A DNA stretch of 64,000 bases from Microthyrium microscopicum (taxonomy: Eukaryota). Shown piece after piece: positions 8,664-61,054 of this stretch. The stretch spans positions 1,809,530 to 1,873,529 of the forward strand of contig MU004238.1 of assembly GCA_010405405.1 (NCBI GenBank). Direction: 5' to 3'. The position numbers were made by a program, and so were the translations under genes. The notes below the pieces were generated by a model. That model was not told where the DNA came from. It saw only the letters and a program-made list of their open reading frames with translations, and ran no database searches. The first letter of the stretch is position 1. Every line of letters starts with the position of its first letter.

Positions 8664-10442
8664 TTAATTGAGCATGTCTATTAGTATGTCCAACATCTCT
8701 TTAAACGAGATCGACTCTTCGTCGGTATCAACGACTCCACTCAATTGCTCCTGAAGAGTACTCTTGATATCACCGAGGCCTTCATCTCGATCTGCCAACA
8801 GCTGCACGGTCTTTCTCTTTGCACCAGCATCCTCAGCTATTAGCCAAGCTAGTACTATATCCAACGTCTGCAAGCTATACAATCCCGCATCCAGTCTTTG
8901 CGACAGCCACACAGGCTCCCTCTCTTCCTGCTCCTCTGCATTCAATTCTTTCCGTTCTGCTGTGATTTGCTCCGCAACCAGTCGCAGTTTGGGCGCCAAT
9001 CCGCTACGCACTTCTACCAGTCGCGCGATCTTCTCATAGTCTTTCTCCACGAACTTCGCTAATAAGCGGATCCGCTCTGCCGAGTCACCAGGCAGTGCGC
9101 GCAGTAATCCCGCAAACGCACTCAACAGGTGTGGCAGTATCCGTGTGTCCGTGACGGGCGTTTTCATAAATGGACCAAACAGTGCTTTTAAACCTTGTGC
9201 TTCGACGATACGTTCGCAAACCTCCAGACTGCCCGCGCCACTCGCTGCATGATCTAACAGCTGGAAAGCACGTGGGCGGGCTTGTTTGGTCGCACCGCTG
9301 CGCACTAATAGAAGGGCCAGCTCAATGCCTTCTGCTTTCACGAATGCGGTTTTGCCAGCGGGTTCGGCAACGAGACAAGTCAGCGCGTCGAAAAGGTTCG
9401 CGACGAGTTCTTCGTCTGCTAGATCACGAGCTTGGTCGGCGCGACGATATGGGGCGAGAAGTTGCAGAAGGGTATCAACCGCATCCAAAGGTATGAGGGC
9501 CAGACGGTTGGGAGTGTTGGATTGGACGAGGATTGATAGCAGTTCGCCAGCGTAAAGTTTGTTTTGTGATGGGGCGGTTTCGGGTGCTTGGATTCGTTTA
9601 AGAAGCCATGGGAGGATCTTAGTGTCTTTGCCGATGGTCGTAACCAGGGCGGGTTGCGAGGCGAGTGATTCGATTATACTGAGACTGTTATATATGCCAC
9701 CGCGGTCGATTTCGTCGCTCTCATTGAGACGAGCGAAGTTTTCCACAAGGAGGTTTAGCATGTCGGCATCGATGGCTGTGTTGACGACGGCATTCCATTG
9801 TGCTTCGGAAGCGTCGACATCTTCGTCGATGAGTTCGTTGATGATTTGAATAGCTTCGATTGCTATATCGGGGTTTTCGTGAGCTATTAGCGATACAAGG
9901 GATGCAACGCAACCAAGGTTGGCAAACTCCTCGTACAATTCTGGATGCTCTGAGAGGATTGACAGCTCTTTAACTGACGTGTCTAGATCTGCTTCCGATC
10001 CCATGAACTTTGTTGGATCCTCTTCGAATTTTGCACGCAGTTCCGAATTCTTGGAGATCTTCTTTTCGAACGCGAGCGCGAATTTTCTCAGCCAAGCCAT
10101 ATCGTACTTTTCTTCTACATGCGTTTCTTCTGCATCCTTTGCATCAATAAAGTCCAGCGCCGCCTTCCCATCTTGGTCAACTCCTCCGCCAAAGAAGCGC
10201 CCATCTTCGTCGTCGCCAGGACCATAGTTTTCGTCTTCATCGTCGGGAGGTGGAGCTGGGCCCGCTTCCATATCTTCATCCTCGTCTGGATCTTCTTCCA
10301 CGGAGGCATGAGATGCTCCTTTTACGTCGCCATTTTCTGTATGCTTTGCGGACTTGTAGAATTGTGATGGGTCATGGGAGACTTCGAGCTTTCGCTTCGC
10401 AGGAAGGTGTGGTTTCTTGAATAGATCATCGATGCTGCTCAT
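8664..10442 (-). CDS. CTNNBL1: Beta-catenin-like protein 1 (spliceosomal Prp19/CDC5L-associated)
   Basis: FEKKISKNSELRAKFEEDPTKFMGSEADLD, LIAHENPDIAI, NKLYAGELLSIL, KFVEKDYEKIARL and RLDAGLYSLQ. Single long ORF. Confidence 0.9.
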   Translation of the reverse strand: MSSIDDLFKKPHLPAKRKLEVSHDPSQFYKSAKHTENGDVKGASHASVEEDPDEDEDMEAGPAPPPDDEDENYGPGDDEDGRFFGGGVDQDGKAALDFIDAKDAEETHVEEKYDMAWLRKFALAFEKKISKNSELRAKFEEDPTKFMGSEADLDTSVKELSILSEHPELYEEFANLGCVASLVSLIAHENPDIAIEAIQIINELIDEDVDASEAQWNAVVNTAIDADMLNLLVENFARLNESDEIDRGGIYNSLSIIESLASQPALVTTIGKDTKILPWLLKRIQAPETAPSQNKLYAGELLSILVQSNTPNRLALIPLDAVDTLLQLLAPYRRADQARDLADEELVANLFDALTCLVAEPAGKTAFVKAEGIELALLLVRSGATKQARPRAFQLLDHAASGAGSLEVCERIVEAQGLKALFGPFMKTPVTDTRILPHLLSAFAGLLRALPGDSAERIRLLAKFVEKDYEKIARLVEVRSGLAPKLRLVAEQITAERKELNAEEQEEREPVWLSQRLDAGLYSLQTLDIVLAWLIAEDAGAKRKTVQLLADRDEGLGDIKSTLQEQLSGVVDTDEESISFKEMLDILIDMLN

Positions 10443-10812
10443 GATGTAGATAATCAATGACTTGGCGCATACATAGGCAGGTAGGTTCTTGAGGATTTCT
10501 GTATTGGCTGAAGCTTCAAGAATAAATATCAGAAACTGAGATGAAGATGTAGGGTTGCAAAATCGGTAACCCTTGTGTACTGGGAACCAGGGGCAGTTGC
10601 TTGCGTTCCCACGAGTGACGAGCCTCCTCCACCTTGTCGCGACACGCGCAGTGACACCAGTTGAGATCCGAGAGCGTGTTCAGTCCTCAGCATCTGCCAG
10701 CAGTGCTTCCCGGCTATGCCGATTATTCTCTTCATGGTCCAAAGCTTTTGAAACCTCGCGCATTTGCTTGATATGAAATGCTTGTCCGACATTCAAAATC
10801 AGTGACTTCACA

Positions 10813-12849
10813 ATGGCTTCCAAGCTCTCATATAACGAGTTTGTCCACATCGGAAAGCAGAACTATAGAGAGAAGAACTTCGAAGCTGCCCTCGCAAACT
10901 TTAAGAATGCCTTGAAAGTGGCAAAGGAGCCAAATCTGGATATCTTGGAATTTCTGGCTGCCGCGACTGAGAAACTCGGTGAATTGGAAACCTCTCTCAA
11001 ATATGGAAAGCAAATGGTAGATCAGAGTGAAGGCAACACGAGAGGGTATCTTCGACTGGGAAAGACGCTTGAGGCGTATCAGAAGGAGTCCCAGAGGAAA
11101 AAAGGCCTTATGATCTACGATCGTGGTCTAACCAAAGTCTCCGCAGCAGACCCATACTTCAAGGTATACCAAGTGGATTATTGGTGTTTTCAGTACAAGA
11201 GCTGACTGTGGTAGCTTCTTCAATCGACTAGACACCGTCTATATCTAGTAATTGAAGGACCCAATGCTAAGGATCCCTTAACGGCTTTCCCATATGAAGT
11301 TGCTCAAATAGTGATGAGCTATCTACCCTTTCACCAGGTTATGTACGTTTAACCCATTGCCCTTGTGCATATACAACACTAACCCCCAATCTAGCAAATG
11401 TCTTGCTGTATCCAAAGGATGGAGGGGTTATTTATCGTCTTGCCCCGAACTCTGGCTAGATATAGATCTGTCACACGGCAAAACATCACGACAAAAGCGA
11501 ATTCCTAGAGCATTTGTCAAAAGCTGCGTCAAGTACTCCGATCATCAAGTCAAGTCATTAAAACTCGGATGTTTCGCTCACCGGCCAACAGTCCTCGCCA
11601 TCGCCATGACTTGCAAGAAGTTAGAATCAATCGAGATTCCCTTTGATTCTGATCTCGGCGGGGATACACTTGTCGAAACACTAAAGTACTCAAAAAGTCT
11701 CAGACGTCTGTGTGCTAAGGTCGCGCTCCCTTCGGATCAGATCAACCAGATTCTTGAGAGAAGCAGCGGTTTGACGCATCTGGACGTGGGATGGATCTCA
11801 CCAGGTAAGAATTCCTACGCGCAACTTAGTAAGGTTATTGCGAACTTGATTTGTCAAGAAATGTTCTGCCAGTTCTGGAACATTCGCATTAATAAATTAT
11901 AGGGACGGGTAGAATTCTGTTCGCATCCACATTTTCTTTACCCAACTTGAAGCATTTCGAGTGTAGAGGCCACTCATCAAGAAATGTTGAGATTACTGGT
12001 CCCAATCTTCATCAGGTACCTTCTTCGACCTCTTGATATGTAGCAAGCCCTAACGTCACAAAGTTCCTGAACAGCGTTCCCAATCTAGAATCCTTCTGTC
12101 TGACCAGCGCCACCATTAGCTCACTGGTGGCAGATTTTGGCCTTCTCAAGAAACTCAAGTCTCTCAACCTAGAAAGCGTCTACTTTGGTGTTGGCACAAG
12201 CCTAAGCCTTCCTCCAACACTCGAAAAGTTAGCCCTTCGATCTGTTCTTGGCCGACTCATAGGCTGGGGAAATTTACCGCATCTGAAGCACATTGAGCTA
12301 AGGAATTGTTATGACGTTCCCGCCTTAATGGATCGCTTACTCCAGATGACGGCAACCGAGAGCCCGGAGGTAGATAGCAAGGGCGAGCTCATCTGCTCCA
12401 AACTCGAAACGCTTATGTTGGTCGGCATGGTATGGAGCGGCAATACTATTGCAGCGCAGATATTTTCGCCAGACCTACGATCCATATTCAAGCAGCCACG
12501 AGTATCGGAAGTCAAGACATTAGTAGTTCAGGGGCCGGAATTTCTCGACGAGACGGTTCAGGTCATCGAAGGTTCGTACTGTTGAGCCGATCTGTGTTGT
12601 GTTTCGATCATTCGCTAATTCACCACTTTAGAGAACCTGACAAAACTCAATATGGTGAAGATGACTACCACCGGTGTATCCGGTGTAGCAATCAAGAAGC
12701 TGGTGCAGTCTCAAAAAAAGCTAGAGTGGATCATCCTTGAGAATTGCCTATCCGTCTCGCCCGATGCGGTGACTTGGGCCAAGAGTCAAGGTATCAACAT
12801 TCGCACTCGTTCGGAGCTTGCCCCCAGAGGACAAACTATCTGGAGATAA
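10813..12849 (+). CDS. TPR + F-box + LRR protein (Pof3/Dia2-like)
   Basis: N-terminal TPR helices (GKQNYREKNFEAAL...RGYLRLGKTL), an F-box (DPLTAFPYEVAQIVMSYLPF...CLAVSKGWRGYL) and LRR-like C-terminus. Several introns. Confidence 0.8.
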
Positions 12850-19266: not shown

Positions 19267-21297
19267 CTAGCTAAGATTGTTCTTTGTGTCCTCAAGATGC
19301 TTCCTGTCAGCCTCTTGTAAGGCGACGGTCTTCTTGGTGTACTTTCTCTTATCGATGGTTGGAATGAACAATGCGGCAATGCAACCTGTAAGACCAAAAG
19401 CCAATGCCACGTAGTAAGCAAGATGTGCGCCTTGTAGATATGCCTCTTTGTTGGCCAGCACAGCTGCGGCTTCGACTTGAGGATTGATGCCTGGAACCTT
19501 TGCATATGCGGCAGCAGTGCCAGTACCAGCGGCAACAATAAGAGCCTTCAGGTTGGTGGCCGGGAAGTTGAGCTTCGTTGCAGCGGCTGTAATGTAGCTT
19601 GGGAGCTCTGCCTTGTACTTATTCGCTGAAACGTTACCGAAAATGGCGATTGCGATGGATCCTGCCAGTAGGCGAGCGGTGCCAGCAATACCAGCCGCCG
19701 TTCCGATATCTTCTTGATAGACAATACCAAAACCAACCATGACAAGACAGTTAAGGATGACTAAACTTGTGCACATGGAGATGATGACACTGAGTATGAT
19801 TGATTTCGCGTGGTTTTCCACGCTGGCGGTCGACATGGCACCGATGCAAGCCGTCTGTAGTGCAATTGAAAAGAAGACCTGCCATCTTTGATGGCCAATT
19901 TTCTTGGAAAACATTATTATGATTCCTCCGACTATATTGCATTAGAACTGACATCACCGAAAAGATCAAGATTGGATCAAACTTACAGATGGTTCCTAGT
20001 GAAAGGGCTTCACCATACAATCCTTTTTGAATGTCTGTAGTAGCATATACAAGCTGTGACATACGTGGCCACTATATACATGTTAGTGTGTGACAATGTT
20101 TTTGGACTGTGAATACTCGTACAAGAGTAGCTTGGCTGTAGTATTGCATGCCGGCGATAGCCATAGCGACGATTGGCATGGTAAAGCTAATATGGGATCA
20201 GTCTCATTCATACTGTTTTTGAGATTGGATACTCACTGTCGAACTTGTTTGAAAAGCCGTGGTGGTAGTAATGGTTCCGTTATTTTACCATATCGTTCAT
20301 AGAAGCCAAGACCAATGAGGGTGCAGAATCCAACCACGATAGGAGCGATTGTCGCAGCACTTTTCCATGGATGAAGACTTCCACCCCATGAAAGTCCACA
20401 GATGAGAAGAGTGCAACCCGCAACGAAAAGAAACAGACCGATCCAGTCAAACTCTTTCAAAAGCTGCAGTTTTGTCTTGCCATCAGCGCGATGCTTTGTT
20501 TTGAATGCTGGCGGATTGTAGAAGAAGAACAAGAAGATTATGTTAAGGGCTTGGAAACCTATCATCATGTAGTAACAGTTTCGCCAGTTCCCGGTGAGGT
20601 CAATGATCGCCCAAGAGGTCAACGGCATCATCTGAGCAATGATAGAGGAGGCATCGAATAAACCAATCGTAACCATGCGCCATTCAGCAGGCACGATTTC
20701 CTTGGAAAGTAGTTAGAACTGTGAAGCTATGTAAGATATGGCTGATGACCTACCTGGACAGCACCAAATGACATTTCCAAGAAACCAGAGCCGGCACCAA
20801 ACAATGCTCCTCCTGCAATCATTTGCGGTATACTTTTGCCCGTTGCACTAACAACACTGCCAATCAGGATTATGCAGCTGCCAGCGATGAAGAACCATCG
20901 ACGACCAAAGATGTCCGAGAGACGACCTCCTACTGTGACGAAGATGGCGCCTCCTAGATTCCAAGAGATAGTGATCCAGGTGTAGGTCGGATCTGGTCCA
21001 AGTTCAGCGTTGATGAAGCTTAGAATGGCCGGTGGAATCAACAGTGTGAACAGATAAGCATTATAACACATGCCCATAGCCTATAATTCCAAAGTCAATT
21101 TGGGTCAAGATTATGGTTTAATCACTTACACAAGCAGCCATAATGGTTCTCCATGTCATACCAACTTCGTAACCCGTTGTTTCCAAGTGACGAATGATGG
21201 CCTCTTGTGCATCGCCCTCCCGGGCTGGAGATGTGGTGCTCGAGCGGTCGACATTGTCGACATGCTCAAGAGCTGCTTTCTCGTGAATTTCTGCCAT
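19267..21297 (-). CDS. MFS transporter, fungal TRI12 (trichothecene efflux pump)-like family
   Basis: MFS motif A (GRLSDIFGRRWFF), LINAELGPDPTYTW, WRNCYY...FFYNPP, FDWIGLFLF...GLSWGG..HPWKSA, and many TM segments across exons. Confidence 0.88.
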
Positions 21298-22419
21298 GCT
21301 TTCAAAGTGCAAAAAGAAACAGAACCTTGGAGGGAAACTCTTGAGAGCGACAGCGCGCCTGGATAATTATATATCTTTGAGCTTTACCACCCTCTTGGAT
21401 CCATTCATTCCGATTTCTAAGCTACTGCCATCTCGCAAGACTACTCTATTGACTAGCGCTTCTCCACACTGCATGACCCCAGATTATTGGCAAGGCTGTA
21501 GGTTCGTAGAATGATAATGAAGATGTTTCCCGGGTCGCTAGTGAAGCTAAGGATACGCTCCTTCGGGTTGGGCACGCGAAAGCTTACTTCTCTGGGTCAC
21601 TTGGCGGATATAGAGGCGGATCTAGAGGCGGAACCAGTACGGTAGGCCAAGGAAATGAACGAATGATTGGACGCGGAAAATGTGCTTCCAAAACCTAAGG
21701 GTCGGTGAAGTTGCGAGGAGACCAAAATGAGGAAGCATCGGAAAAGCACATCCATTATCGCCACCATGTTACTGGCGTTCATCAGGGATATCCTTTTCCT
21801 CCGATTATTCTCATTACTATGACCAATAACATCGAAGAGCACAATTTATAAATGCTGATTTTTCTCAAGTGTCATGTTGGAACAATACTTCATTTGATGG
21901 ATGCAAGTTGTGGAAACAAGACCAGAGATCAGCGAGTCTAAAGGTAGAGAAGGTCAGCACAGCGAGCTGCAAAAGCTAACAACCAGTATCCAGCAATCCG
22001 GAAGACGCGCTATTTTGGGACTAACTTGTTAGGCTAGGCACGGGACCTTGATTATCTCTACCAAAGGACCACATTCCCGGGTCAATCAAGGTCTGGACTT
22101 TGGTAGGCCTCAGCCCAGGAACCAAGATCCTATGGCGACGAGGACATAAATGATCATCTGCAGCCTTGCCATGATCGAAATGTACCAATAACAATATGGT
22201 ATTGTTAGCTTGTTGCTCGGATTTGAAGCTTGACATGCAAAAGTGACCTCTTGGACGCTGACTCAATATAAACCACCCTGATTATCGAATTCCGCAAGCG
22301 AGATATCTGAAAAGTAAAGCGCCAGAGTTTATTCTACTAAACAAGGGTCCAAGTGATCCTGAATGGCTTAACCGTTCGCATCTAGTGTCTCCAAGTGAAT
22401 TTCCAACCACCTTTGCAGA

Positions 22420-23339
22420 TCATGGACCAGTGATACTCTGGATATCGTCCAGTCTTCTGGTCTCGATCCATGCAATGGCTTCCTTTCTATTCCGACACAT
22501 GTGTGCCTGTCCTCCACCTCTACTGTCAAGCAATGATTCTGAGCCTTCTAGCGTCATGTCGGCTGAACAGAGTATCTGATTTCGGAGATACTCAAAACAA
22601 TGTGCGGCATGATCATCATTCCTTTCTCCGTCAAATCCAAAAGACCCATTAACGACCAGTTGGTGGTATGTATCCACACTATAGTACAGACAATGCAAAG
22701 CATGCGTCCACGATGCTTCGTATAGGGGACCAGACCTGATAGGATCATCAAGGATTGGTTTACCTAACAAAGGATACTGTTCATGTTCCGGAATTGCAAC
22801 GCTTCCACTTCCCACTGCCTCTAGGTTAGCTAAATTTTCCTTTGGCAAAACACGGCATTTCTTGATTAACTTACATGGCATCAGTAGATCCCAGTTCTTT
22901 CTCACCTCCATCCTATTGACATTGGAAGCCATATCTGGTATGAAAGCAGATTCATTTGAAGTAAGTATTGTGTAGGTGTGTGATTCTATCAAATATTAGG
23001 AGAAGAAACTTGGAAGAATAATAGGACGTTACTTGGAATATAGAGACCATTCACGTCGCCTCCTGTTTCTGTTTCTGAAGTCTTCCATTCTACTTCGCGG
23101 TCCGAGTTTTCATTCCGCAATAGTAAAATTATTATCGCAGTTTGTAGTATAGTAATAGTTGCCCAACGAAACCATACCAACAGAGAGGAAAGATTTTGGA
23201 AGCGCGGATATCCTCTGCGCCTCAGAGAAGTCTTTCTGCGCTTACCATCAGAAGTCAAGGTCGAGTCAGAGCAATACTCCAAGTCAAGAGCCTCCATATT
23301 AAGAGGTGTGTACTCTTGCTTGTTGTTGGAGGATTCCAT
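22420..23339 (-). CDS. UstYa-like / DUF3328 oxidase (copy 1)
   Basis: N-terminal TM anchor (WFRWATITILQTAIIILLL), WDLLMP, two HxxHC motifs (HALHC, HAAHC) followed by FEYLRNQILCSADMTLE and HMCRN. Introns at about 23032-22986 and 22874-22815. Confidence 0.93.
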
Positions 23340-23881
23340 AGAGAGTTACTTGGGAACTAGATTGGAGAGTGAGCTGTCTTGCAATACTTGGAGGCTACCA
23401 AACCCGACTCGTTGAGCTTTCGTGGGAAGAAGAGCAGACAACCATATTGCTGCGTGTCGTCCATGTTCCACTCAATTGTTTTGGTGACGAAAGTGATTAC
23501 GAAGGAGCAAGCTTTACTGGCACTGGGAAAATGTTTCTAACAGTTCTGTTTCAGTTCCTGCCAAAAGAATGCTTATTTCCTGTGCCGCGCGCAGCCAAAC
23601 AATTGAAACATAGGCGCCCAATCCAACAAAAAGATCAAAACACTGAAACACTGAACACTGCAGCCTGTACTGACATCCACGCCATATCCTGATGCAACGA
23701 CCCCGAATCCATCTGGCGCCTTTCCACAAATCCGAGTCCGCCCTGAGAAGAAAAGAAACAATGGTAACGTTCAGAGCTGGCGACGCATTGAGTAAGCATA
23801 ATGACCTGTTTATCAGTAATTGCCTCACGTTTGAGGCATACGAAATTATTTGAAGAGGTAAACGTTGGTTTTATGTCATTA

Positions 23882-24843
23882 TCAGAATTCATCTGGCTGT
23901 TCCATGTTTCCCACTGAATTTTTCAATCCCCACTGCCGTACTTTATCAAAATTCCGGCAAGTATGATGTGAGTTCAACTCAGGCCATGGCAATGGGTCGC
24001 CCTCGAGCATGTAGAACGTGAATACTCCAATGTCGGCATTACACTGCGTATTGACTCGAAGAACTTCCAGGCAATGATCTGGGCAGCTATCAGTAACAAA
24101 AAATCTCAATGTGAAAGGCTGCATTACCTGTGTGCATTTGTAGTTCTTCGCCACTGACCGCAAGATTTCCAATCTCAATTTCTGTATAATACTCTTTGTA
24201 TGTTACTTGACGAAGCAGGTTGATGCAATGCAGTTGATGGAAGACTTCAAGCCCAACCCTATAGCCTTCTACTCCAGTTTTGGGGTTCTTCACTTTCAAG
24301 CTATCTTTTGGCATGTTGATGATATCAAGCTCTTCCGGAGAAATCATTTGGTCACCAACTGGATAAATCAGAAAAATAGTTCATTCTAGTCATAAATAAC
24401 TTACTATCGTAAGAAAGTGCATCCCATGCTTTATCAACTTCCGGGCCTTTGCCGGTGTAGGGGGATTTCTTTCCCATTGTGAAGTTGAATTTCACATTCT
24501 CATATTCAACAGCCTCCACAGCGGGTGCTAGATACGTTGTTAGATCAGTTACTTTAGATCTGTTCCAGAGACACTCACAATATGCTGAAAAACGTCTCAC
24601 ATGCTCTGCTGTTGAGATATGTCTAAAATACGTTGCTGTGAACATTGTAAAAGAAAGCGAAAGGAGTACGGCATGCACCAGCCACAACCACCTGGACTGG
24701 AATCCTTGACTGTCATGAGATATTTTGGAGACTTCTTCGTGCAGCAATGTCAAATCTGAGGAAGAGGAAATTGAAGTACGATTTCGATAGCCATCATGAT
24801 ATTTCTCTTCCTCCTTTCGAACTGGTTGATAGGTTTGAGACAT
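23882..24843 (-). CDS. UstYa-like / DUF3328 oxidase (copy 2)
   Basis: TM anchor (WLWLVHAVLLSLSFTMF), Y|SPAVEAVEY, SPYTGKGPEVDKAW, LEVFHQLHCINLLR, HT|DHCLEVLRVNTQCNAD and HTCRNFDKVRQW. Four exons. Confidence 0.95.
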
Positions 24844-25658
24844 TTCTGTGGATTCGAAAATGTGTAAAATTTTGATCAATGAATACTTGTCGATGAAGAA
24901 TTATGAAAGATTCAAGAAATGGGTAGCGGCCCCGTTATTGCGATGCGATGTAGTTACAAACGGGACATGAACTTACAAACACAAGCTTTCTTATTTCAGG
25001 GCCAAGACTGCGAGGCGCCGTATCATGCTCAAAAGAATTGTTTTTTTGTTCTTGGGATTGCACGCCTGAGCGGGTAGTTCGTGTGGTGGAGAGCGCCTAG
25101 ATTTGAAACATATGGAGTTGCAACAGTCATGTCAACATGCAGGGTAATGGGGTTGAAATCCACTGAGATATCTCGGCTACATCTCCTCCGCAATTAAGAT
25201 TATCTTTTCACCAGATCGTCTGCAAGCCATTTCAAGCATACGCCGGAATGGCTCAGATGTGACACTATTACCCATGTGGCATTATGGGGCTTTTGACAGC
25301 TTTAACAAACTGTTTGGCAGCCAAGTGAGCGGGTGGACAACCTCTGTCAGAATGTTTCGACAAACGCTGTCTCGTAATGTTTGACATTATGACAACTTGC
25401 GTTGTTTTACTAACCTGAGGATGCACCACACTGAGCAATCCAATAAGAGCTTGCAATGGATAGGAGTACATGATCCTTTTCCTGTCGTTCGTATATAGGC
25501 ATGACAGTCAAGCCATTCCATTTAAGAGTACATCTGCTCCAATTTCTTGGCTTTTTCATCATCCTCACTATCTTTTGACTTCAACGACCTCGCTGGTTCG
25601 ACAATTTACATTCGCTTTCACTGCAGGACAGTCAGTCATTCATACTTCAACCTTCGAT

Positions 25659-26423
25659 ATGCATACCTTCTCTTTCGCCCAGCTCTTGACTGTTGGTCTT
25701 TTGGCTATTGCGCCAATCACTTCAGCCTATGTTGTTGATGGAGGAGAAACTGAAGAGCTATCTACCAAGAGATGGCTTGTAAGTACTACCAATCTCAAGT
25801 GACTCTGAGCCAAAATTGAGCAGTCTTAGGGAAGTCCATCTGTCCTTGTACGATCTGTCTTACAAGTTCGACATCACGCCGCTGCTAAAGGGTAAGTTGT
25901 ACTGTCTACACATCACAAAGCAAACCTAATCAAAACCAGGGCGGCTAAAAAAGGAAAGAAGGCAAAGAAGGCACAGAAAATTGCCCGTGCCATTGATCTC
26001 GTAGCGCGAGACCCTCATCACGCTGCTGCCAAGGGCGCGAAGAAAGGGAAGGGTGCGAAGCACGCTGCTCGCAGTGTTGAAGTCGAGGCCAGAGATCCTC
26101 ACCACGCTGCTGCCAAGGGAGCGAAAAAAGGGAAGGGCGCGAAGCACGCTGCTCGCAGTGTTGAAGTCGAGGCTAGAGACCCTCACCACGCTGCTGCCAA
26201 AGGCGCGAAAAAGGGAAAAGGAGCAAAGCACGCCGCTCGCAATGTTGAAGTCGAGGCCAGAGACCCTCATCACGCTGCTGCCAAGGGAGCCAAAAAGGGA
26301 AAGGGAGCAAAGCACGCCGCTCGCAGTGTTGAAGTCGAGGCCAGGGACCCTCATCACGCTGCTGCCAAAGGCGCGAAGAAGGGAAAGGGCGCAAAGAAAG
26401 GCACAGCAGCCAAAGCAGCATAG
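25659..26423 (+). CDS. Secreted tandem-repeat peptide precursor (KEP / candidate RiPP precursor), 221 aa
   Basis: Exons 25659-25778, 25830-25891 and 25940-26423 (GTAAGT donors; TAG and CAG acceptors) join in frame. Product: signal peptide MHTFSFAQLLTVGLLAIAPITSA, acidic pro-region ending LSTKR, WLGSPSVLVRSVLQVR-HHAAAKGAAKKGKKAKKAQKIAR-AIDLVAR, then 4x[DPHHAAAKGAKKGKGAKHAAR-(S/N)VEVEAR], then DPHHAAAKGAKKGKGAKKGTAAKAA*. Confidence 0.9.
26010..26420 (+). repeat. 84-bp coding tandem repeat (four full units plus a diverged fifth)
   Basis: Units start GA(C/T)CCTCA(C/T)CAC at 26010, 26094, 26178, 26262 and 26346. Confidence 0.97.
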
Positions 26424-26737: not shown

Positions 26738-28529
26738 CTAGCCACCATAAGTCGCTCCAGCTGCTGGCCTTCTGACCACACCCGGATCGTCTATTTTCAG
26801 AGTTTCGGAGCCATCTAGCCCTGAAAAAACAGCACCATATTGTACTCTTCGATGCCCAATTTCACCTAGGAGCGTCTGTGACGTCGAATTCGCATCCTGG
26901 CTGCGTAAAATTGGGGCTCCGAAGGCTCTCCCAACCTCAATCGGACTCAACGAAACAGCTCGCCCAAGCGACCACCAGCCGGCGAATATTGGTGCAACAC
27001 ATACCACAGCTAGAATCGTAACAGCTACCGCGCCTGACATGAAGGCATAATTTGAACGGAAAACCGTTACCACTTCCGACTGCTGAGCCATAATTTCTTG
27101 TATATCTGTGGAATTTGTAAGGTTTGCCGAGTGCAAAGCTGCCCGAAAGGCAAGTTCGCGAGCAGAATCAAGGACCTTATCTGTTGGGTCACTCCATGTG
27201 GTTGGACACTTCTGCGTAAGGCTGGAGTTGGTAGACTTGATGAAGCTGAATGCACCGCTCCCTTGGCTTGAATATTCCAAGCCAACAGCGCCACCAAAAC
27301 TCATGTGGACGCTTGAAGACCACTGTGTCGTTAAAGCCAGGAACATCCCGCCATGCGTTGTAGGCCCAGTGGCTCCTTGGGGAGCGGTGGTGGTGTAACG
27401 AATCAATCTGTCGAATTCATGATTGAAGTCCGGATCTAGAAAAGCGGAATCGTTTCGGAATAGCACTGGATATACCATGGTGGCTGGGCGGAGAGTACAA
27501 TTTTTGACCTCAAGTGTTCCATTGCAGGCGTCCGTTGTTTTATACACGCTATTGTATTTGATGGGAGCAGTTTGACTGTATTCATCATAAGCGAAAGAAA
27601 TGGAAAATATGTCGAAGCCGGTATAGTTGAAGGTTACGGAACCATTGCTTTCAAGATGAGCTACCGCGAAAGGTACAGTTGTAGAAATGCATAGCATCTG
27701 GTAGCCGGCGCCTTGTAAATTTGCTTTGCATGTCCCATGACAACCGCTATTCGAAACGTTGACCGGTGTCCCAGCATTATACTCAGTTAATACTGTACTG
27801 AAATTTGACGTAGGAAAGGATGCAATTCTCTGACAGTCTGTTAGTCATAGTGTAAGTACATTAAGGAAGTATTTGACAATGTTCTTCTCGGAACTAAGCA
27901 CGGAAAGAACTTACAACTCGGCCAGTGATGATTCCTGTCAATCCTTGAGCAAACTCTTGAGCAATAGGCACTCTCATCTTCATAGTCGAATTGACCAGCT
28001 TTGTGCCCACGGTCGAAGAGCGCTGTAGCAGTGGCCCGTTTATGGGCATGAGAGAAGCAGCGATGCCAGCGATTGCCATAATATTCAGTGCCGGTCCAGC
28101 GAGTAATGCTGCTCTAGACTGCGTCCCAAATGCCCAGATATTGCTCAATTCTGTCAATTGGGCTCCACGCGATGCCTTTACCCACCAAGCCACGGCCACA
28201 CCCTCTGAAAGCGATGCGCGAAGAAAGATGTTGGCACCCGCGGACGCGATAGCCAAGTACACAGAAGGTTGCACCACCCAGTTACTGACTGGAGATTCAT
28301 TCGAAGAGACAATAATTCCGACCATGACACCGGTACATGCAAAGGCAGTTAGAAGCGACAAAATCCCGGCCCAAGGCAATCGCCTCCAGAACCCAGTTTT
28401 CCATGGTGATGTGGCTTCGAGAGGTTGATATGATTGATTCTGCTTTCCATATAAAGAGTTTGTGGACTTGTTATCTTGCAGTGAATGTTGAAGGTGATCC
28501 CGCAACATGTACTCTTCATTCGAAGCCAT
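26738..28529 (-). CDS. Fungal membrane protein, DUF3176-like
   Basis: Two N-terminal TMs with PVSNW..QPSVYLAI...SLSEGVAVAWW, NGPLLQRSST, an N-glycosylation-rich luminal region, and a C-terminal TM followed by GWWSLGRAVSLSPIEVGRAFGAP. Confidence 0.7.
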
Positions 28530-31274: not shown

Positions 31275-34200
31275 CTAGCGACCATTCCGATGCCCATTCG
31301 CCGGCACTCCAAAATAATCATCCTCCTCAGCGTCTTCCTCATCATCATCGTCTGCACCATCCGTGATTCCCAGCCCACTGCGTCCACCTCTTGAAGTGCC
31401 ATCACCAGCCTCAACCTCATCAGCAAAGTTCGTCGCCAACGCACCACCACCTGTATTGATGCGCAAAAGCTCGCCTTCCACATAGCTAGCCACGCGGCTA
31501 TCCTGCTCAGCCTTTTGGGCCAGCGCATCTGCGTCCCAGACACCGACTGAATTGACGCGACGGAGGCGGGCACGACGGATTTGCTCTACGTCTTCTTCAT
31601 CGTCGTCTTCATCTATTGATTCAGCACCAGCGTTTGAGATAGGCGGACGAGAGGAGACGGATGACTGTCGACGGCCGCCGAGATCGCGCGCGGTGGAGGA
31701 GCGGCGGAGTCGGCGAGGGCCGAACCCGGTTTTGGAGCGCTGAAGAATGTCGTCAAAGTAGTGAGCAGCGGCAGCGCCGGGGGTGGCGGGAGTTTGAGGA
31801 AGTTTGCAGTTGATGCTAAAAGGCATGTTAGTATAAGATGAAAAAGGGGAACCAGTGCGGACATACCCAGTATCATGGATGATCTTTGCTATGAGACCTG
31901 TCCATCCAGTCTGGTGAGTGGCGCCGAGACCGCGACCGGTGTCGCCGTCAAAGAATTCGTAGAACCATACACAGTCTCTCCAATTGGGGTCGAAATCGAC
32001 CATGTCGTTGCCGTTGTTGATAGGGCGGCGACCTTCGTTGTCTTGGAGGAATAGTCCAGTGAGACGATGCTGGATTTCTTCAGCAACCTGGCCAAGATGT
32101 TTTTCATCGCCAGAGCCGGTGGGGCATTCGACAGTAAGACTATTGCCGTAGAACATGTAGAAGCGTTGCAGAGATTCGACAATGAGGAAGTTGACTGCGA
32201 GCCATATTGGGCCACGCCAGTTGCTGTTTCCACCGAAAAGACCACTGTCAGAGTCGCCAGGTAGGTAAGCGACTTCAAACTTTTGGCCGTTGACAACCAT
32301 AGAGTAAGGATTGTCCTTGTGAAATTTTGATAGTGAGCGTATTCCATGATCCGCAAAGAATTCCTCCTCATCCAGCATGCGATGAAGAATTCTCCTCAGC
32401 TTGTTTTCGTCGCAAAGAGCGAGCAGCATTCGATCGCCTCGACCTTTTCGTTTGAGACTTGCTAGATTTCGGTCCGCAATTTCTTTGTTGTGTTCGATAA
32501 ACCACTGAACTCGCTTTTTGAACCATGGCAATCTGTCCATGACCTCCGGCTCCAGTGTACACGTTGCGTACAATGGAATAAGACCGACCAGAGACCGTAC
32601 CGGCATCTGAAGGCTCCAAGGGCCGCCCCATGAAATCGCATCATAGTAGAAACCATCTTCGTCGTTCCACAATGGTTTCGACTCGCCACCAGATCGATAT
32701 CGTAGTGCGTCGCTGATAAGAATGAAATGCTCAAAGAATTTTGATGCAATATCTTCGTATGTCCGTCTCCATTTGGCCAGTTCCAAAGAAATGTTCAACA
32801 TGCAAACACAATAGAAACCCATCCAGCCAGTGCTGTCAGCTTGTTCAAGAACACCTCCTGTAGGTAGAGGATCTGAGCGGTTGAAGATACCAATATTGTC
32901 GAGGCCTAAAAAGCCACCTTCAAAGACGTTTTTGCCATCAGAATCCTTCCGATTGACCCACCAAGTAAAGTTTATGAGTAGCTTAGTGAAGCATCGCTCT
33001 AGGAAATCCATATCTTCGACGCCGTACATTTTCCGCTCAATTTTGAATGTTCGGAAGACAGACCACGCATGGACTGGTGGATTGGTGTCACCAAAGTTCC
33101 ATTCATACGCAGGAAGTTGACCGTTGGGGTGCATGTACCATTCGCGAGTAAACAAGTCGAGCTGCTTCTTTGCAAATTCTGGATCAATCATAGCCAGAGG
33201 AATGCAGTGAAAAGCAGTGTCCCAAGCGGCAAAGAACGGGTATTCCCAGGAATCAGGCATGGAGAGAATATCGTCCAAATACATGTGCTTCCACTGCGCA
33301 TTTCGAATATTCTTGCGACTTTCGGGCGGAGGTGGCATACTAGGATCGCCATTCGCCCATTGATCCCAGATGAAATGGTAATATTGCTTGCACCAAAGCA
33401 TACCAGCAAAAGCTTGTCGTTGAATGTTTCGCATATCCTCGCTGATAGGCATAGGACTAATGCGAGCATAGAACTCATCTGCTTCTACCCGACGTTGCTC
33501 GATAATCTCATCGCAAAGTTCTTCGTCGACATATCCATCAGCATTTGGAGAGACTCGAAACCGGACGACAGCACATTCTCCTGGCTTGATACCCTCATCT
33601 TCGTCAAAAGCATACCAAGCTGCAAGTTTAGTACCGGTACCATTGGGATTCACGGCATTTTCTTCGTTGTCACAGATGTGTTTGTGGAAAGCATCCTTGA
33701 CATATTTTGTCTTGTTGTCTCCCCATCCTAGGGCTTCGTAATTGGTGTCATTGTCTGTGAATAGAAGAGTTGGTTCAATATCGTCGCTGTTTTCGCCAAC
33801 ACCAGGAGATGGTGAGAATTCTACATATCGTTCTCCAAGGTCGGGGTGGACAGCCTTGGCCAGTAGCTCAGATTCCTGATTTATTGATGGTTTTTTATCC
33901 GGAGCCTCCCGGCCCCATGCCCATGTGTTTCGGAACCAAGTTTGCGGTATAATATGAAGAGGAGCGGGCTTGTTTCCGCGATTCCAAGCCGTCACACGAA
34001 ATACGAGGGCCTCTGGATCATCGGCCTCTTTTGCAGTCTCGATGAATATATCCCAATATTCATCGTCTTCGAAAATGCCGGTATCTGTGATGTTGTATTC
34101 TTTATCGAGGCGACCGCGTCGAGCGTTTTCTTTGATGAGATCCTCGTAGGGAAATGCACGTTGAGGGTACTTGTAGAGGAATTTCATGTAGGAATGCTGC

Positions 34201-34830
34201 AATCTTTAGCTCTGATCACAGTAGACATTGATTAGAGTACATACCGATGGAACATTGTCAACGTGGAAGTGAGCTTCTTTGACAGATTCTCCGTGGTTTC
34301 CCTGCGGGTTGGACAAGCCAAATAGACGTTCCTTGAGGTGATCACTGCATCCAGATCAGCTACGTCCATCATAGTTTGAGCAAAGAGCCCTACTCTTTTC
34401 CGTTCCAGAAGGAGAAAGCAATGTTGAATCGACCGTGAGTATCGCAAACGCCGGCAATGCCATCCTCGCCCCAACGATAGGCTCGAACTCGAGATTGAGG
34501 ATAAGAAAAGTCTATCAAATTATCAATTGGGCTGTTTCTCTGATCGTAGTGGGGTGCATACGCTCCCAAGCATCACCGTCATGACTGCAGACGCGATATA
34601 TCAGTTATGGTCTCAAAAAGGTAGCTAGTCGATCAACTTACGAGTAATCTTCACGAACTGCAAAAGGTTAGCATTTTCCAGTCCCGATCATCAGGCGAGA
34701 GCTTACCAGTAGCCCATTGTCGTTCCGCAACGTAAGGACCGAATTTTTTCCAGTACTTTTCGCGTTTACGGTCTTGACGAAGGCGTTTTTCCTCTTCCGT
34801 CAGGAACTCGTGGTTGTCTACGAGCACCAT
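31275..34830 (-). CDS. Glycoside hydrolase family 63-like protein (MGH1 / YMR196W-like)
   Basis: WKKFGPYVAERQW, SMPDSWEYPFFAAWDTAFH, HPNGQLPAYEWNFGDTNPPVHAW, FEGGFLGLDNIG, GGNSNWRGPIW, YEFFDGDTGRGLGATHQTGWTG. Several small 5' exons. Confidence 0.9.
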
Positions 34831-35994: not shown

Positions 35995-37028
35995 TTACCC
36001 TTCCACTGTGTCTAGCGTGCCTTTGCCAGTCGTAGAAGCCGGAACATAGCCTTGCTGAGCTCTCAACCTCTCCTCGAACTTCTGAAACTCCTGCATCGCA
36101 ACTTCCTCCTCCTGATCGAAAGCCTGTTGCACGCCTTGAACCTCTTCAATATAATGCATCTATACCCATTAGCAACCGCCATATCTAGCCAGACTTGAGG
36201 CGCAGAACTTACCAGCATACTCTCAATTCCATTCCTGAGCGTCACCGTACTCGAATCACAAGTCCGACACGCCCCCCTCAACTTCAAATAAACCTGTCCA
36301 TTCTCAAACCCACGAAACTCAATATCGCCCCCATCATCCTGAATCGCCGGCCTAATCCTCGTCTCCAGCAACTCCTTAATCATGCCCACGACTTCACTGT
36401 CATTCTCGTTATATGCCAAACTGTCTGCCTCTTCTTCTACGCCATCTTCGCTTTCTTTAATGGTGACCATTGGTTGCCCGCTCGTGACTGCTTCAGTGAT
36501 GAGACTGAATGCTTCCGGCTTGACGTGCGCCCATTGAGCACCGGCATCTTTGCTGATGGTGATGTAATCGCTGCCGAAGAACACGCCTGTTACACCGTCA
36601 ATGGCGAGTAGTTGGGCGGCGAGCGGGGAGGGGTAGGGTGGGGTGATTGTGGAGCGTGGTGAGAGGTATTCGACATATGGCGATGGGAAGGGGTCGGGGA
36701 GGACGCGCTGGTTGGGCTTGAATTTGAGGGCCTATATTGATGTCAGTACTCTGTTGCGGGTAAGCTCTACGATTGGAATAAGACGCACATCGGGATTTGG
36801 TGTGTCCTCTGTTTGTATGAAAAGCGTTCGCTTCTGAGGCTGACATATCGAGCTCGTTACAGGCCTAAGTTGTCGATATGATGGCCGTAGTGGATTGCTC
36901 GATGTTATATGGATTTGCCGCACTGCTGCTGGACATTGACAGGTTCGTACTGAGCGCGCGATGGCGGTGGAGGGTCGAATTGACCGGACTGATCTCGCGA
37001 CCGATTGTGAAAGCGACCTTGAAGCCAT
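35995..37028 (-). CDS. NFU1: Mitochondrial NifU-like Fe-S carrier
   Basis: Presequence, LFIQTEDTPNPD, IKELLETRIRPAIQDDGGDIEF and LRGACRTCDSSTVTLRNGIESML|MHYIEEV (CxxC). Confidence 0.95.
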
Positions 37029-37805: not shown

Positions 37806-38626
37806 TTTGGGCGATGTTGTGAAGAAGTTGCGTTTTTGGTTGACTGTTCGCGAGTTATCGGGGGCATTTGCGTATGCTGACTGTTGAGTTGCTGACTTGT
37901 TTGATCTTGATGCATGATGCACATGGTTCATGGTCGAAGCATCTCTTGACACCATTTGATTTGCTTACCGGGTGCAGGCCTAGCTACGCGATGCATATCA
38001 ACATCAAGGTAAGCACTAGGCGCAACGGATAAGTTATGGATGAATTTTTCTGCAAGATATCATTGCTCTCAAGCATCAACTTCCCTGCTGGGATCATGAA
38101 TGATGATGGTACACCCTACTATTGGTCTCTTCAATATCCCTCGACGGGGAGGCAGCAAAGAACACATGAAAGATTGGGTTCATATCAAATTCTAGTGCAT
38201 TTCGAGAGGCTGGGGTAGCTAACAACGGCCCCAGTCTAGATTTACTGTACCTTTTAAAAGTAAGCTCAAGCTCCAGGACCATACCTGTACGACCTACATA
38301 GTCCGCCCTCTGCTCGAGCCTCCGACCACGAGTGATATTTCTGAAGTCATTCGGGGAGGGCGCCTATACGAAGATAATTGGCTCATGTAGTTCGAAAAGC
38401 AGCTCCACTTCACTCCACATGGTTCAAGTAACTTAGAAGGCAGAGCTACCCTCGGTTCAGATATCCCCGCGATTGACCATACCAGACTATGAAGTAATCT
38501 TACTCCAGTTCAGACCTATATAGTGAACATCTCGCCCTCTGATCTTGGTTTACCGTTACTTCCCAAATCTCTGATAAATCAACCTTCCAAAACTTACTAC
38601 ATTCAATTACCATACCAAACTATACC

Positions 38627-40279
38627 ATGTCCGACGACACAGCAGCCATCAAGCAGCTCGAAGAAGCACTCGCCATCCAAAAGAAAGCATTTCTCAAAAA
38701 CCAATGTCCCTCCGCCGAAGAACGAAAAGCCAATGTTGGTAAGATTCCTGCCATGGTTCTGTCCAATCGCGATGCTATTCGAGAGGCTTTGAACAAGGAC
38801 TTTGGAAACCATGCTCAGACAACTACGGACTTGGTAGAAGTTCTGGGTGTGGCGGGAAGAGCAGCATACGTTATTTCCAAGATTGATGAATGGATGAAGT
38901 ACGATAGGAGAGACATGGACGCACAGATGTATGGTGATGGAATAGGAGAGGTGCGGTATCAACCGAAGGGTGTGATTGGGAACATTGTTCGTAAGTATAT
39001 TTCCTTTTCTCAACTAGTCTCTCATGGCTTTGATATGCGATTTTGTATCACTCTTTCTTCATACGGTTATTGGAACTGGAGGGAAGCAATTGCATCATGC
39101 CACGACAGCATAGAAGCCTTCAGCAGAATATCCAGATACGCTCTCCTCCATTATAGCTGTATCGCATATTGCAGAGAACTCAACTAACCAGCAAAAGCAT
39201 GGAACTTCCCCGTCGACCTCTCCCTCGGACCCCTATGCGAGATGCTCGCCGCCGGCAACCGCGTAATCATCAAGCCCAGCGAATTCACGCCCAACATCGG
39301 CGCCCTCCTCGCCAAAATGATCAGCGATGCCTACCCAGCCGACCTCGTCACCGTCATCAACGGCGGTCTCGACCTCTCCAAACGCTTCTCCCAACTCAAA
39401 TTCAACCACATCCTCTACACCGGCAACCCAGCCGTCGGCAAGCTAGTCATGGGCGAAGCCGCAAAGAACTTGACTCCTGTGACCTTGGAACTGGGCGGCA
39501 AGTGTCCAGTGATCATGACAAAAGGCAGCGTGAATGCAGAAAATGTAGAGAATATTTTGGGCACGAAGATGTTGAAGAATGGGCAGATGTGCATTACGCC
39601 TGATTACGTGCTTGTGCCAGAAGGTGATGTGGAAGCGTTCACCGGCGCCGCGGAGAAGTTGTTTATGGAGAAATTGCCGAATTATGCGCAAAATGCTGAT
39701 AATACGGGTATTATTTCGGAGAGGCATTTGAAGCGGATTACAGGTATGATTGAGGAGGCGGAGAAGGCTGGCGTCAAGTCCATTGAGCTTGGTGGCGAGG
39801 CTGCGAAAGATAACAGCAAGAGACAACTGCCGATGACTCTGCTTGTGAATCCGGGGCGCGATCTCAGCGTCATGAAGGAAGAGATCTTTGGACCTGTATT
39901 GCCTATTATCCCGTATAGCAACCTGGAGGATGCCATTGACGAGGTCAATGATGGCGAACGCCCGCTTGGGCTGTATGTATACTCTGATGACTTGGATGCT
40001 GCGAACAAGATTATTGATAACACGAATTCTGGCGGTGCAGCTATCAATTGTGCGGCGATGCAAGGAGCGCTGCCATCACTGGGATTTGGCGGAAGTGGTA
40101 ACTCGGGCATGGGTAGACATCATGGCGTAGAAGGTTTCAGAGAGTTCAGTAACCCGAGGGGAGTTGTTACGAGGGATGCGAAGAGGCAGGATATGATTGC
40201 TGCGTTTATGCCACCATTTGCGGCTTTGGGTCAGCCAATGGCAGATGCTGCGTATAAACAAGCTATGGGTTTGGCCTGA
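38627..40279 (+). CDS. Aldehyde dehydrogenase, coniferyl-aldehyde dehydrogenase (CalB/ALDH3)-like
   Basis: YQPKGVIGNIV|PWNFP, LAAGNRVIIKPSE, LTPVTLELGGKCP, NGQMCITPDY (catalytic Cys), EEIFGPVLP and FGGSGNSGMGRHHG.EGFREFS. One intron, 38991-39197. Confidence 0.92.
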
Positions 40280-60219: not shown

Positions 60220-61054
60220 GATTAAGTTTATGATATAGGTATTATTGCGGAAACGGAGAGTATTCTGGGAACGAGAAAGAACAGTTGGGGTTGAATGAAC
60301 AACATATAAACGCTGATACTTGTCTCCCTGATTTACGTTGATAGTATCTTGTTCAAAGTATGAGGCACGGTATGCGGCGGAACCGGCATTGTCTCGAACA
60401 TCTGCTGTCGCTTATTGTCGCTCATAGTTTCATGTCATTGGTCGAAAGTTGACAGGGCCTGATGTTCAGTACAGCGTTTGTAGTGTTTACTACTGCAAAC
60501 TCACAGAAGTACAGAAGGAAACCCTACTTTTTGAACCAAGAAGAAAATTGAATATGACAACCCCGGTGGCTTTCAAGTGTATATCATGTAAGTACTTACT
60601 GTGTTCTGTTCGAGGATGTTTTGTTTGATAGGTGTTGTTGAAGTTGAAATTTTACCTTACGAATAAAAACATACAAGAACTTATCAAAAGCTAGGTATCT
60701 GACTGTCGAACCAACATATAATTTGATTTAATTGCAAGGTAAGCAACCGTATTTCTATATGGCGAATCTAGAGAGGTCGTAGTCTGATCTAGCCAATCCG
60801 AGCTAGTCAGCAGAGATAAGCAAGGTACCTCCTACCTGTTATCACCAGGAGGATCCAGACTCCAAGACCTAGACTCGACATCGACCTGGCCAGCTTTGTG
60901 ATAGATACTAGCATCGACTCTCTTCTCTTAAGTCTTTATTTGTATCGAGCATGTACCAGAATCAGCTTGCAATTTGATGCAGCAGGATGCTTACCGCAAC
61001 GCGTGACTGACTACGGTGGCTTGCCCGAACCTATAAGGGATCGATGACCAAAAC

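Follow-up and report, generated by a model that had tools for sequence, protein, structure and literature searches.

In a stretch of 64,000 nucleotides from the fungus Microthyrium microscopicum (assembly GCA_010405405.1, contig MU004238.1, positions 1,809,530 to 1,873,529 of the forward strand; the whole stretch is called the window here), a gene for a repeat protein with a putative signal peptide lies beside two genes for oxidases of the UstYa/DUF3328 family. The three genes probably represent a conserved ascomycete cassette, in which a secreted multi-core precursor is acted on by the two oxidases in a dikaritin-like pathway to a peptide made on ribosomes and then modified (RiPP), the product being uncharacterised. 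This reading is supported by the conserved linkage of the precursor to orthologous oxidases, and it is on the conserved gene order that the proposed role of the peptide as oxidase substrate is based. The coordinates of all features are collected in Table 1.

An initial annotation, made from the letters alone, had proposed a hidden three-exon gene for a 221-residue repeat-peptide protein and had made its reading hang on the spliced form. This form is present in the contigs of sequencing run X5 with both junctions (25778/25830 and 25891/25940) exactly as predicted; both are GT..AG joints and neither occurs in the DNA runs X1, X4 and X6. The X5 contigs contain 14 intron-skipping joints over 9.7 kb, each with GT..AG ends in the orientation of the gene it belongs to, and the same 14 joints were not seen in the three DNA runs. 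That X5 is an RNA run is a guess, but the 14 canonical, sense-oriented joints indicate that it holds spliced transcripts. Among them are the introns 22815-22874 and 22986-23032 of oxidase gene 1, bridged by one X5 contig, and the introns 24079-24127, 24359-24404 and 24528-24578 of oxidase gene 2. Spliced forms of all five neighbourhood genes occur in this one run. Because X5 also covers the spacers, every one of the 30 bins having depth, and because depth is given as an average per contig, only the presence of spliced forms is stated here, not co-regulation.

Table 1. Features of the window, with positions counted from its first letter.
Feature	Position	Strand	Description
UstYa/DUF3328 gene 1	22420-23339	-	270 residues; exons 23033-23339, 22875-22985, 22420-22814
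UstYa/DUF3328 gene 2	23882-24843	-	271 residues; exons 24579-24843, 24405-24527, 24128-24358, 23882-24078
Spacer from the gene 2 start codon to that of the precursor gene (divergent)	24844-25658	none	815 bp; presumed shared promoter region
Precursor gene	25659-26423	+	ATG at 25659; three exons (25659-25778, 25830-25891, 25940-26423); 666 nt, 221 residues; stop codon 26421-26423
Precursor exon 1	25659-25778	+	signal-peptide-like N-terminus MHTFSFAQLLTVGLLAIAPITSA and start of the pro-region with the protein's only KR (residues 37-38)
Precursor exon 2	25830-25891	+	rest of the pro-region and first His-His unit directly after Arg (QVR-HHAAAKG)
Five tandem units	26010-26420	+	starts 26010, 26094, 26178, 26262, 26346; each DP-HHAAAKGAKKGKGAKHAAR-SVEVEAR
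MFS (major facilitator superfamily) transporter, TRI12 type	19267-21297	-	590 residues; Pfam TRI12 and MFS_1; five introns bridged in X5
DUF3176 membrane protein	26738-28529	-	568 residues; PF11374; intron 27830-27914 bridged in X5; convergent with the precursor gene
IF2-type GTPase	3996-6518		Pfam
Catenin-beta-like protein	8664-10679		Pfam
GH63-like glycosidase	31275-34205		Pfam
NifU-like protein	36063-36731		Pfam
Aldehyde dehydrogenase	38543-40279		Pfam
Amino-acid permease	40412-41786		Pfam
bHLH factor	51421-52926		Pfam
Zn2Cys6 factor	61037-62920		Pfam

The precursor begins with a hydrophobic segment ending in T-S-A, a putative signal peptide, and the exon 1 product aligns with the N-termini of homologues at 24-42% identity. 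One HHAAAKG in exon 2 is followed by a Lys-rich stretch and then by five units of 28 residues, each starting with DPHHAAAKG, the fifth of which ends in a Lys/Ala tail. Tandem Repeats Finder reported a period of 84 nt at 26008-26396 with 4.6 copies and 90% matches. The copy number rests on the window sequence; in the DNA runs X1 and X4 the contigs are interrupted within the repeat. When the four full units were compared pairwise, 50 synonymous and 3 non-synonymous codon differences were found, all 3 from a single S/N change, and this synonymous excess argues that the repeat frame is coding and under constraint. Other open frames across the repeat were rejected, being supported neither by splicing nor by homology. 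A Pfam match of the repeat exon to Wbp11 (24.1 bits, cut-off 24.3) was likewise discarded as a Lys-rich low-complexity match. The protein itself was not found in the protein collections by word-index, exhaustive or profile searches, whereas the neighbouring UstYa-1 was; the precursor gene therefore seems to be unannotated.

Two side observations concern X5 contigs at the precursor gene. The one with the precursor exons begins at 25141, 518 bases 5' of the ATG, and the interval 25141-25658 contains several ATGs, including an in-frame one near 25470; homologues instead start at the methionine of MH.... This interval looks like a long leader or an overlapping transcript, and contigs cannot show transcript starts. 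Another contig (depth about 165, likeness below 90%) aligns solely with the Lys/Ala-rich beginning of exon 3 at 25943-25978, then diverges into unlike sequence ending in a stop codon; it probably represents an abundant Lys/Ala-rich transcript with no relation to the gene.

The two oxidase genes are complete, and each carries both HxxHC motifs, as the initial annotation had stated. PF11807 (cut-off 25 bits) was matched by four of the five exon-level frames of both genes, with 47.4 bits for gene 1 and 61.0, 53.6 and 33.0 bits for the three frames of gene 2; the Pfam scan gave no PF11807 match for the N-terminal frame of gene 1. In the spliced translations the motifs are HALHC at 177 and HAAHC at 208 of the gene 1 product, and HQLHC at 170 and HTDHC at 205 of the gene 2 product, the second of which is split by an intron. 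Hydropathy is highest at residues 53-71 in both proteins (mean Kyte-Doolittle 1.7 and 1.6), a putative N-terminal anchor. With 29% identity over 89 residues only, the two are distinct paralogues and no recent duplicate. The gene 1 model was checked by its product, which is identical across all 270 residues to the public M. microscopicum protein P0080, and two HxxHC motifs are also present in 52 of 57 UstYa-1 relatives. No relative of the oxidases was found by sequence among solved structures. The distance from the precursor start codon is about 2.3 kb for gene 1 and, for gene 2, the 815 bp reported at the outset for the divergent pair. According to the passages covered of PMC12435403, DUF3328 enzymes are membrane-bound, disulfide-linked, O2-dependent dimers with a binuclear copper site formed from two HxxHC motifs; they require two copper ions per monomer and use O2 and electrons to attack unactivated C-H bonds, leading to hydroxylation, halogenation or macrocyclisation.

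A word-index search with the repeat exon alone gave no match at E<=0.001. An exhaustive phmmer search of 1.84 billion representatives returned 19 proteins at E<=0.001, of which 11 were examined and eight long ones (587-2344 residues) left out. Clear relatives made up eight of the 11, and P0008, P0016 and P0018 were set aside as unrelated repeat proteins. The repeat exon matches proteins of the HHTEAQIAAK type directly (P0006, 2.7e-8; P0009, 1.6e-6; P0010, 4.2e-6; P0014, 5.2e-5), and a profile built from the relatives led to 63 proteins. Common to all is a layout of a similar N-terminus (MH.xS...GLLA...), a pro-region, and repeats with the invariant columns R, P, H and H. The repeat of the family reads R-(X-Pro/Ala)-His-His followed by a Lys/Ala-rich tail, canonically HHTEAQIAAK, which is present at 229 of the 286 His-His (HH) sites in 66 family proteins; in the window protein and in those from Cytospora, Sporothrix and Phyllachora, HH is followed by different Lys/Gly-rich sequences. 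The members with a named source belong to Talaromyces, Capronia, Fonsecaea, Cladophialophora, Botrytis/Botryotinia, Ciborinia, Cytospora, Trichoderma, Lachnellula, Scytalidium, Xylogone, Acephala and lichen fungi, and the closest relative is KUI60763. These sequence comparisons place the window precursor in a widespread family of Pezizomycotina, as a divergent member that seems to lack annotation.

None of six family proteins reached a cut-off in the Pfam copy scanned. P0033 is listed with the precomputed accession PF28547.1, though the scanned copy gave no match, and there may be a newer Pfam family for part of these precursor proteins. The UniRef name 'Small EDRK-rich factor-like' on some Botrytis homologues was not followed, as it looks like a low-complexity artefact of the Wbp11 kind. 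Many members interleave a second conserved, Phe/Trp-rich unit (..PDEFGPWDS.EDEFGSWVDKR) between the HH units, seen in P0020, P0023, P0024, P0029, P0037, P0055, L001 and L002 (numbers with L denote metagenome loci); the window, the Botrytis-type proteins and L004 are without it yet keep both oxidases. In the precursor regions of L009, L010, L012 and L013 several units show a frame interruption directly behind HHTEAQIA, with the frame picked up again further downstream, which looks like introns recurring inside successive repeats. These putative introns would fall at about the same place as intron 2 of the window gene, which comes after HHAAAKG.

The linkage of precursor and oxidases was tested directly. 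Metagenome contigs were scanned with the canonical family profile, and the resulting 17 loci were compared by tblastn with the two spliced oxidases of the window and with all reading frames of window positions 13-36 kb. Where at least 2.2 kb of upstream sequence was available, an orthologue of UstYa-2 (gene 2) lies directly upstream on the opposite strand in seven of eight loci (L002, L004, L006, L008, L009, L012 and L013), with 41-82% identity by segment; the other nine loci have too little upstream sequence to judge. Beyond UstYa-2, an orthologue of UstYa-1 follows in three of the four loci with a 10-kb flank (L002, L004, L009), its last exon being up to 83% identical. The identities greatly exceed the 29% shared by the two paralogues; the genes are therefore taken as orthologues that keep the order and orientation seen in the window. 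A Pfam scan of the related loci, covering 80 of 152 frames of at least 110 residues with overlapping alternative frames left out, confirmed UstYa in L004 and L009; the oxidases of L002 rest on tblastn, as the UstYa exons of this locus were too short for the Pfam scan. UstYa-1 orthologues with 58-83% identity also occur in the same genera as the precursor family. Six named genomes have a precursor homologue and a UstYa-1 orthologue on equally long contigs, and in two species the locus tags are two apart (Capronia epimyces A1O3_10087/10089; Icmadophila ericetorum MMC33_002123/002125). The linkage of precursor homologues to orthologous DUF3328 pairs in other fungi, which had been put forward as a check, is thus borne out by metagenome loci, locus tags and the flags of an earlier survey.

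This survey (Umemura 2020, Fungal Biol Biotechnol 7:11; PMC7329392) searched 1461 fungal assemblies for signal-peptide repeat proteins, termed KEPs, with at least three repeats of at least eight residues between KR, KK, RK or RR, and flagged DUF3328 genes within 15 genes. Its KEP type 6 (label G-3), known by a di-histidine motif with Pro beside it, comprises 64 members from 20 genera, and a DUF3328 gene lies within 15 genes in 57 of the 64 (PMC7329392). All six homologues looked up (EXJ76930, KIX96925, KIW35370, TEY74882, EED15881 and RAO73516) are listed as KEP type 6 with the DUF3328 flag; these six are profile matches, and with no direct repeat-exon match confirmed as a listed member the link runs through the profile. 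The Cytospora leucostoma homologue is in the list as a stand-alone type, DUF3328-flagged. The window gene and KUI60763 are not in the list, the latter probably because its repeats have no dibasic site. The window precursor itself formally fits the survey rule, with DPHH five times, 26 residues between successive KK sites and two adjacent DUF3328 genes. It resembles KEP type 6 as a secreted repeat protein with HH and Pro and DUF3328 nearby, but differs in its core, HHAAAKGAKK in place of HHTEAQIAAK, and in its Arg sites, which read AR instead of KR. The passages covered of the survey give no gene order, oxidase orthology or product (PMC7329392). The word 'new' in the original description of the locus therefore holds only in part: a family with HH and DUF3328 neighbours had been catalogued in 2020, whereas the window gene and KUI60763 are unlisted and no product is given.

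In the searchable literature, which leaves subscription-only papers outside, 'di-histidine' occurs together with 'Kex2' only in PMC7329392, and the string HHTEAQIAAK was not found. The precursor family is not mentioned in papers on Trichoderma, lichens or Sclerotinia, or in the main text of a 250-secretome survey, nor was an account of it found in the literature on UstYa expression in Aspergillus oryzae (2021 onward) or on DUF3328 histidine cross-links.

How the peptides could be released was assessed from the 286 HH sites. HH stands directly after Arg at 71 sites and after Arg plus one X-Pro or X-Ala dipeptide at 193, mostly Glu-Pro (104), Glu-Ala (41) or Asp-Pro (25); at 10 of the remaining 22 sites two dipeptides stand in a row (EAEA, EAEP, EPEP, EPEA, SPSP). 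The first unit has no dipeptide in 50 of the 66 proteins, the form found in exon 2 of the window gene. The residue before Arg (P2), over the 264 classified sites, is Lys in 96 (KR), and AR (57), ER (35), TR (29) and SR (15) together make up 136. The alpha-factor precursor of yeast is cleaved by Kex2, after which Ste13 removes X-Ala dipeptides. By analogy, the pattern would reflect cleavage after a basic residue and stepwise removal of X-Pro or X-Ala, leaving His-His at a free N-terminus. Both systems have the order basic residue, one or two X-Pro/X-Ala dipeptides, mature peptide, apart from the first unit with its missing dipeptide; the peptide sequences are unrelated. A parallel between dikaritin and alpha-factor processing has been noted (PMC9233826, passages covered). 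Compared with their relatives, the Ala-Arg sites of the window are normal for the family, and they may need a protease other than classical Kex2.

These counts also bear on the idea that the cassette is decaying in this genome, with a precursor that has drifted from HHTEAQIAAK, has lost its KR sites and is no longer processed. The window core HHAAAKG... does differ from the canonical one, its P2 residue is Ala and not Lys, and the gene is missing from the protein collections searched. Yet the precursor is intact with its spliced form in the X5 contigs, synonymous differences among its repeats outnumber non-synonymous ones as given above, both oxidase genes are intact, and Arg sites without a basic P2 residue are common in the family. 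Decay is accordingly considered very improbable.

In the dikaritin-like cassette, the putative signal peptide would take the 221-residue precursor into the endoplasmic reticulum. There the oxidases, with an N-terminal anchor and a lumenal HxxHC...HxxHC copper site, could attack C-H bonds oxidatively, either on the invariant His-His or beside it. A protease resembling Kex2 or yapsin would cut after the Arg of VEVEAR and of HAAR, and a Ste13-like dipeptidyl aminopeptidase would remove Asp-Pro, both steps being modelled on the family-wide site pattern. About six peptides of about 19 residues could be released in this way, strongly basic, with His-His first and a modification added by the oxidases.

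A further comparison is with ustiloxin (UstA, UstYa, UstYb), phomopsin, asperipin-2a and victorin, which share with the window a tandem-core precursor beside DUF3328 genes; the signal peptide of their precursors has a putative counterpart here. Ustiloxin likewise has two DUF3328 genes, and dikaritin processing takes place in the secretory pathway (PMC9233826). The cores covered in that source are Tyr...Ile in ustiloxin and phomopsin and Tyr in asperipin, and victorin has a Leu...Phe bridge. The window repeat is unlike all of them, and the proposal that the product is not one of these compounds is therefore reasonable.

Several of the differences and null results weigh against a dikaritin-like pathway. 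Dikaritin cores are short, KR-flanked and cross-linked through a Tyr or Phe side chain (PMC9233826), whereas the precursor repeats hold no KR site (they have A-R sites and internal KK), the repeat exon holds no Tyr, Phe or Trp, and the predicted peptides of about 19 residues are much longer than known dikaritin cores. Dikaritin clusters carry tyrosinase, methyltransferase or peptidase genes, and the Pfam scan revealed none in the 64-kb window. Because two defining features, KR-flanked cores and an aromatic cross-linking residue, are missing, the locus is not a member of the characterised dikaritins, and its chemistry would differ from ustiloxin-type ether bridges. Some of the metagenome loci are near-duplicates (L006/L008, L012/L014, L013/L015), so not all are independent. 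One well-flanked locus, L005, has a precursor homologue (9700-10855) with over ten HHTEAQIAAK units, but the 10 kb to each side of it contain no UstYa gene, and seven of the 64 KEP type 6 members are without a nearby DUF3328 gene (PMC7329392). No product, cleavage or modification of any family member was found in the searchable literature as defined above. L005 is from the same metagenome as L004, which carries the full trio, and its precursor may be an unlinked second copy.

Such points raise the question whether the gene encodes a repeat protein of the usual Kex2 type, from which plain linear cationic peptides with, say, an antimicrobial or signalling role are set free, while the neighbouring oxidases act elsewhere. 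In the passages covered of the survey, 78% of KEPs have no DUF3328 neighbour and are thought to yield linear peptides, and HH content is similar with and without such neighbours (5.7% versus 3.9%; PMC7329392). The aromatic residue used in known DUF3328 cross-links is absent from the window peptides, and L005 has no oxidase gene within 10 kb. Against this stands the finding that the same two orthologous oxidases lie beside the precursor, in the same order and orientation, in distant fungi while every other neighbour changes, and plain linear peptides are regarded as quite unlikely.

If the oxidases do act on the precursor, as the dikaritin-like cassette supposes, the part of the peptide that matters can be narrowed down. 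In their best-conserved C-terminal exons the window oxidases are up to 82-83% identical to those beside canonical precursors, whereas the window peptide shares with these precursors only the leader, an acidic spacer, Arg-X-Pro-His-His and a basic tail. Since the oxidase pair is kept while the peptide shares little else, the feature recognised or modified would most likely be the His-His end and its surroundings. It is conceivable, though doubtful, that the N-terminally exposed His-His is the site of an undescribed DUF3328 reaction, for example one giving an oxidised or cross-linked His cap, and that the products are secreted, basic, possibly copper-binding peptides conserved, along with a pair of copper oxidases dedicated to them, in five or more classes of filamentous ascomycetes, with plant pathogens, Trichoderma, black yeasts and lichen fungi among the carriers.

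The link between peptide and oxidases could also be functional without the peptide being a classical substrate. A free amino terminus next to a His is a good ligand for Cu(II), and N-terminal His-His peptides could serve as a copper carrier, a buffer or a secreted copper-binder for the oxidases or for copper handling. Given copper enzymes with two ions per monomer, such a role is attractive, all the more as His-His is the sole invariant feature of the released peptides and would be placed by processing at the free N-terminus. However, the strict conservation of the ten-residue HHTEAQIAAK in most members suggests more than a metal-binding dipeptide, and other DUF3328 enzymes work without such a partner (PMC12435403, passages covered). 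A purely copper-binding role is thus held to be unlikely.

Two other systems share parts of the architecture. The cyclochlorotine DUF3328 hydroxylase CctR has the Pfam family, the HxxHC(x)nHxxHC motif and an N-terminal anchor (putative in the window proteins) in common with the two oxidases, a likeness stated at family level, but its substrate is a non-ribosomal cyclic peptide (PMC12435403). The epichloecyclin cluster (gigA, gigB, gigC, kexB; PMC10540207) is similarly a small cluster around one repeat-peptide gene. For its nonapeptide cores, cross-linking by way of Tyr and Ile has been stated (PMC9233826), and the precursor is unrelated as far as the searches show.

The genes on either side of the trio, for an MFS transporter and a DUF3176 membrane protein (Table 1), have no counterpart in the related metagenome loci and were therefore dropped from the cassette; the transporter is a possible exporter outside it. 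Some related loci carry an MFS gene unrelated to that of the window. An X5 contig continuing from the MFS region skips the 50 bases 21942-21991, with GT..AG on the plus strand, opposite to the introns of the MFS gene. This points to a spliced transcript of the plus strand, lacking annotation, in the interval from the MFS gene to UstYa gene 1; the list of open reading frames contains no convincing frame around the joint. By Pfam scan the remaining genes of the window are of ordinary housekeeping or regulatory types.

The locus does not represent an unrecognised class, as the precursor type is listed in the 2020 survey, but it is a good, widely conserved target with uncharacterised chemistry. 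That DUF3328 proteins are binuclear copper enzymes opening unactivated C-H bonds was shown only recently (PMC12435403), and the characterised peptide substrates, in the passages covered, all use an aromatic side chain. A pair of conserved DUF3328 enzymes next to a peptide that is invariant only in His-His therefore provides a substrate, defined and open to testing, for a different reaction. Members of the family escape gene callers and precursor screens based on KR, as seen from the apparently unannotated window gene and from KUI60763, which the 2020 catalogue lacks. The cassette is spread over Botrytis, Lachnellula, Venturia, Rhynchosporium, Hymenoscyphus, Trichoderma, Talaromyces, Capronia, Fonsecaea, Exophiala and lichen fungi, and one characterisation would therefore annotate many genomes.

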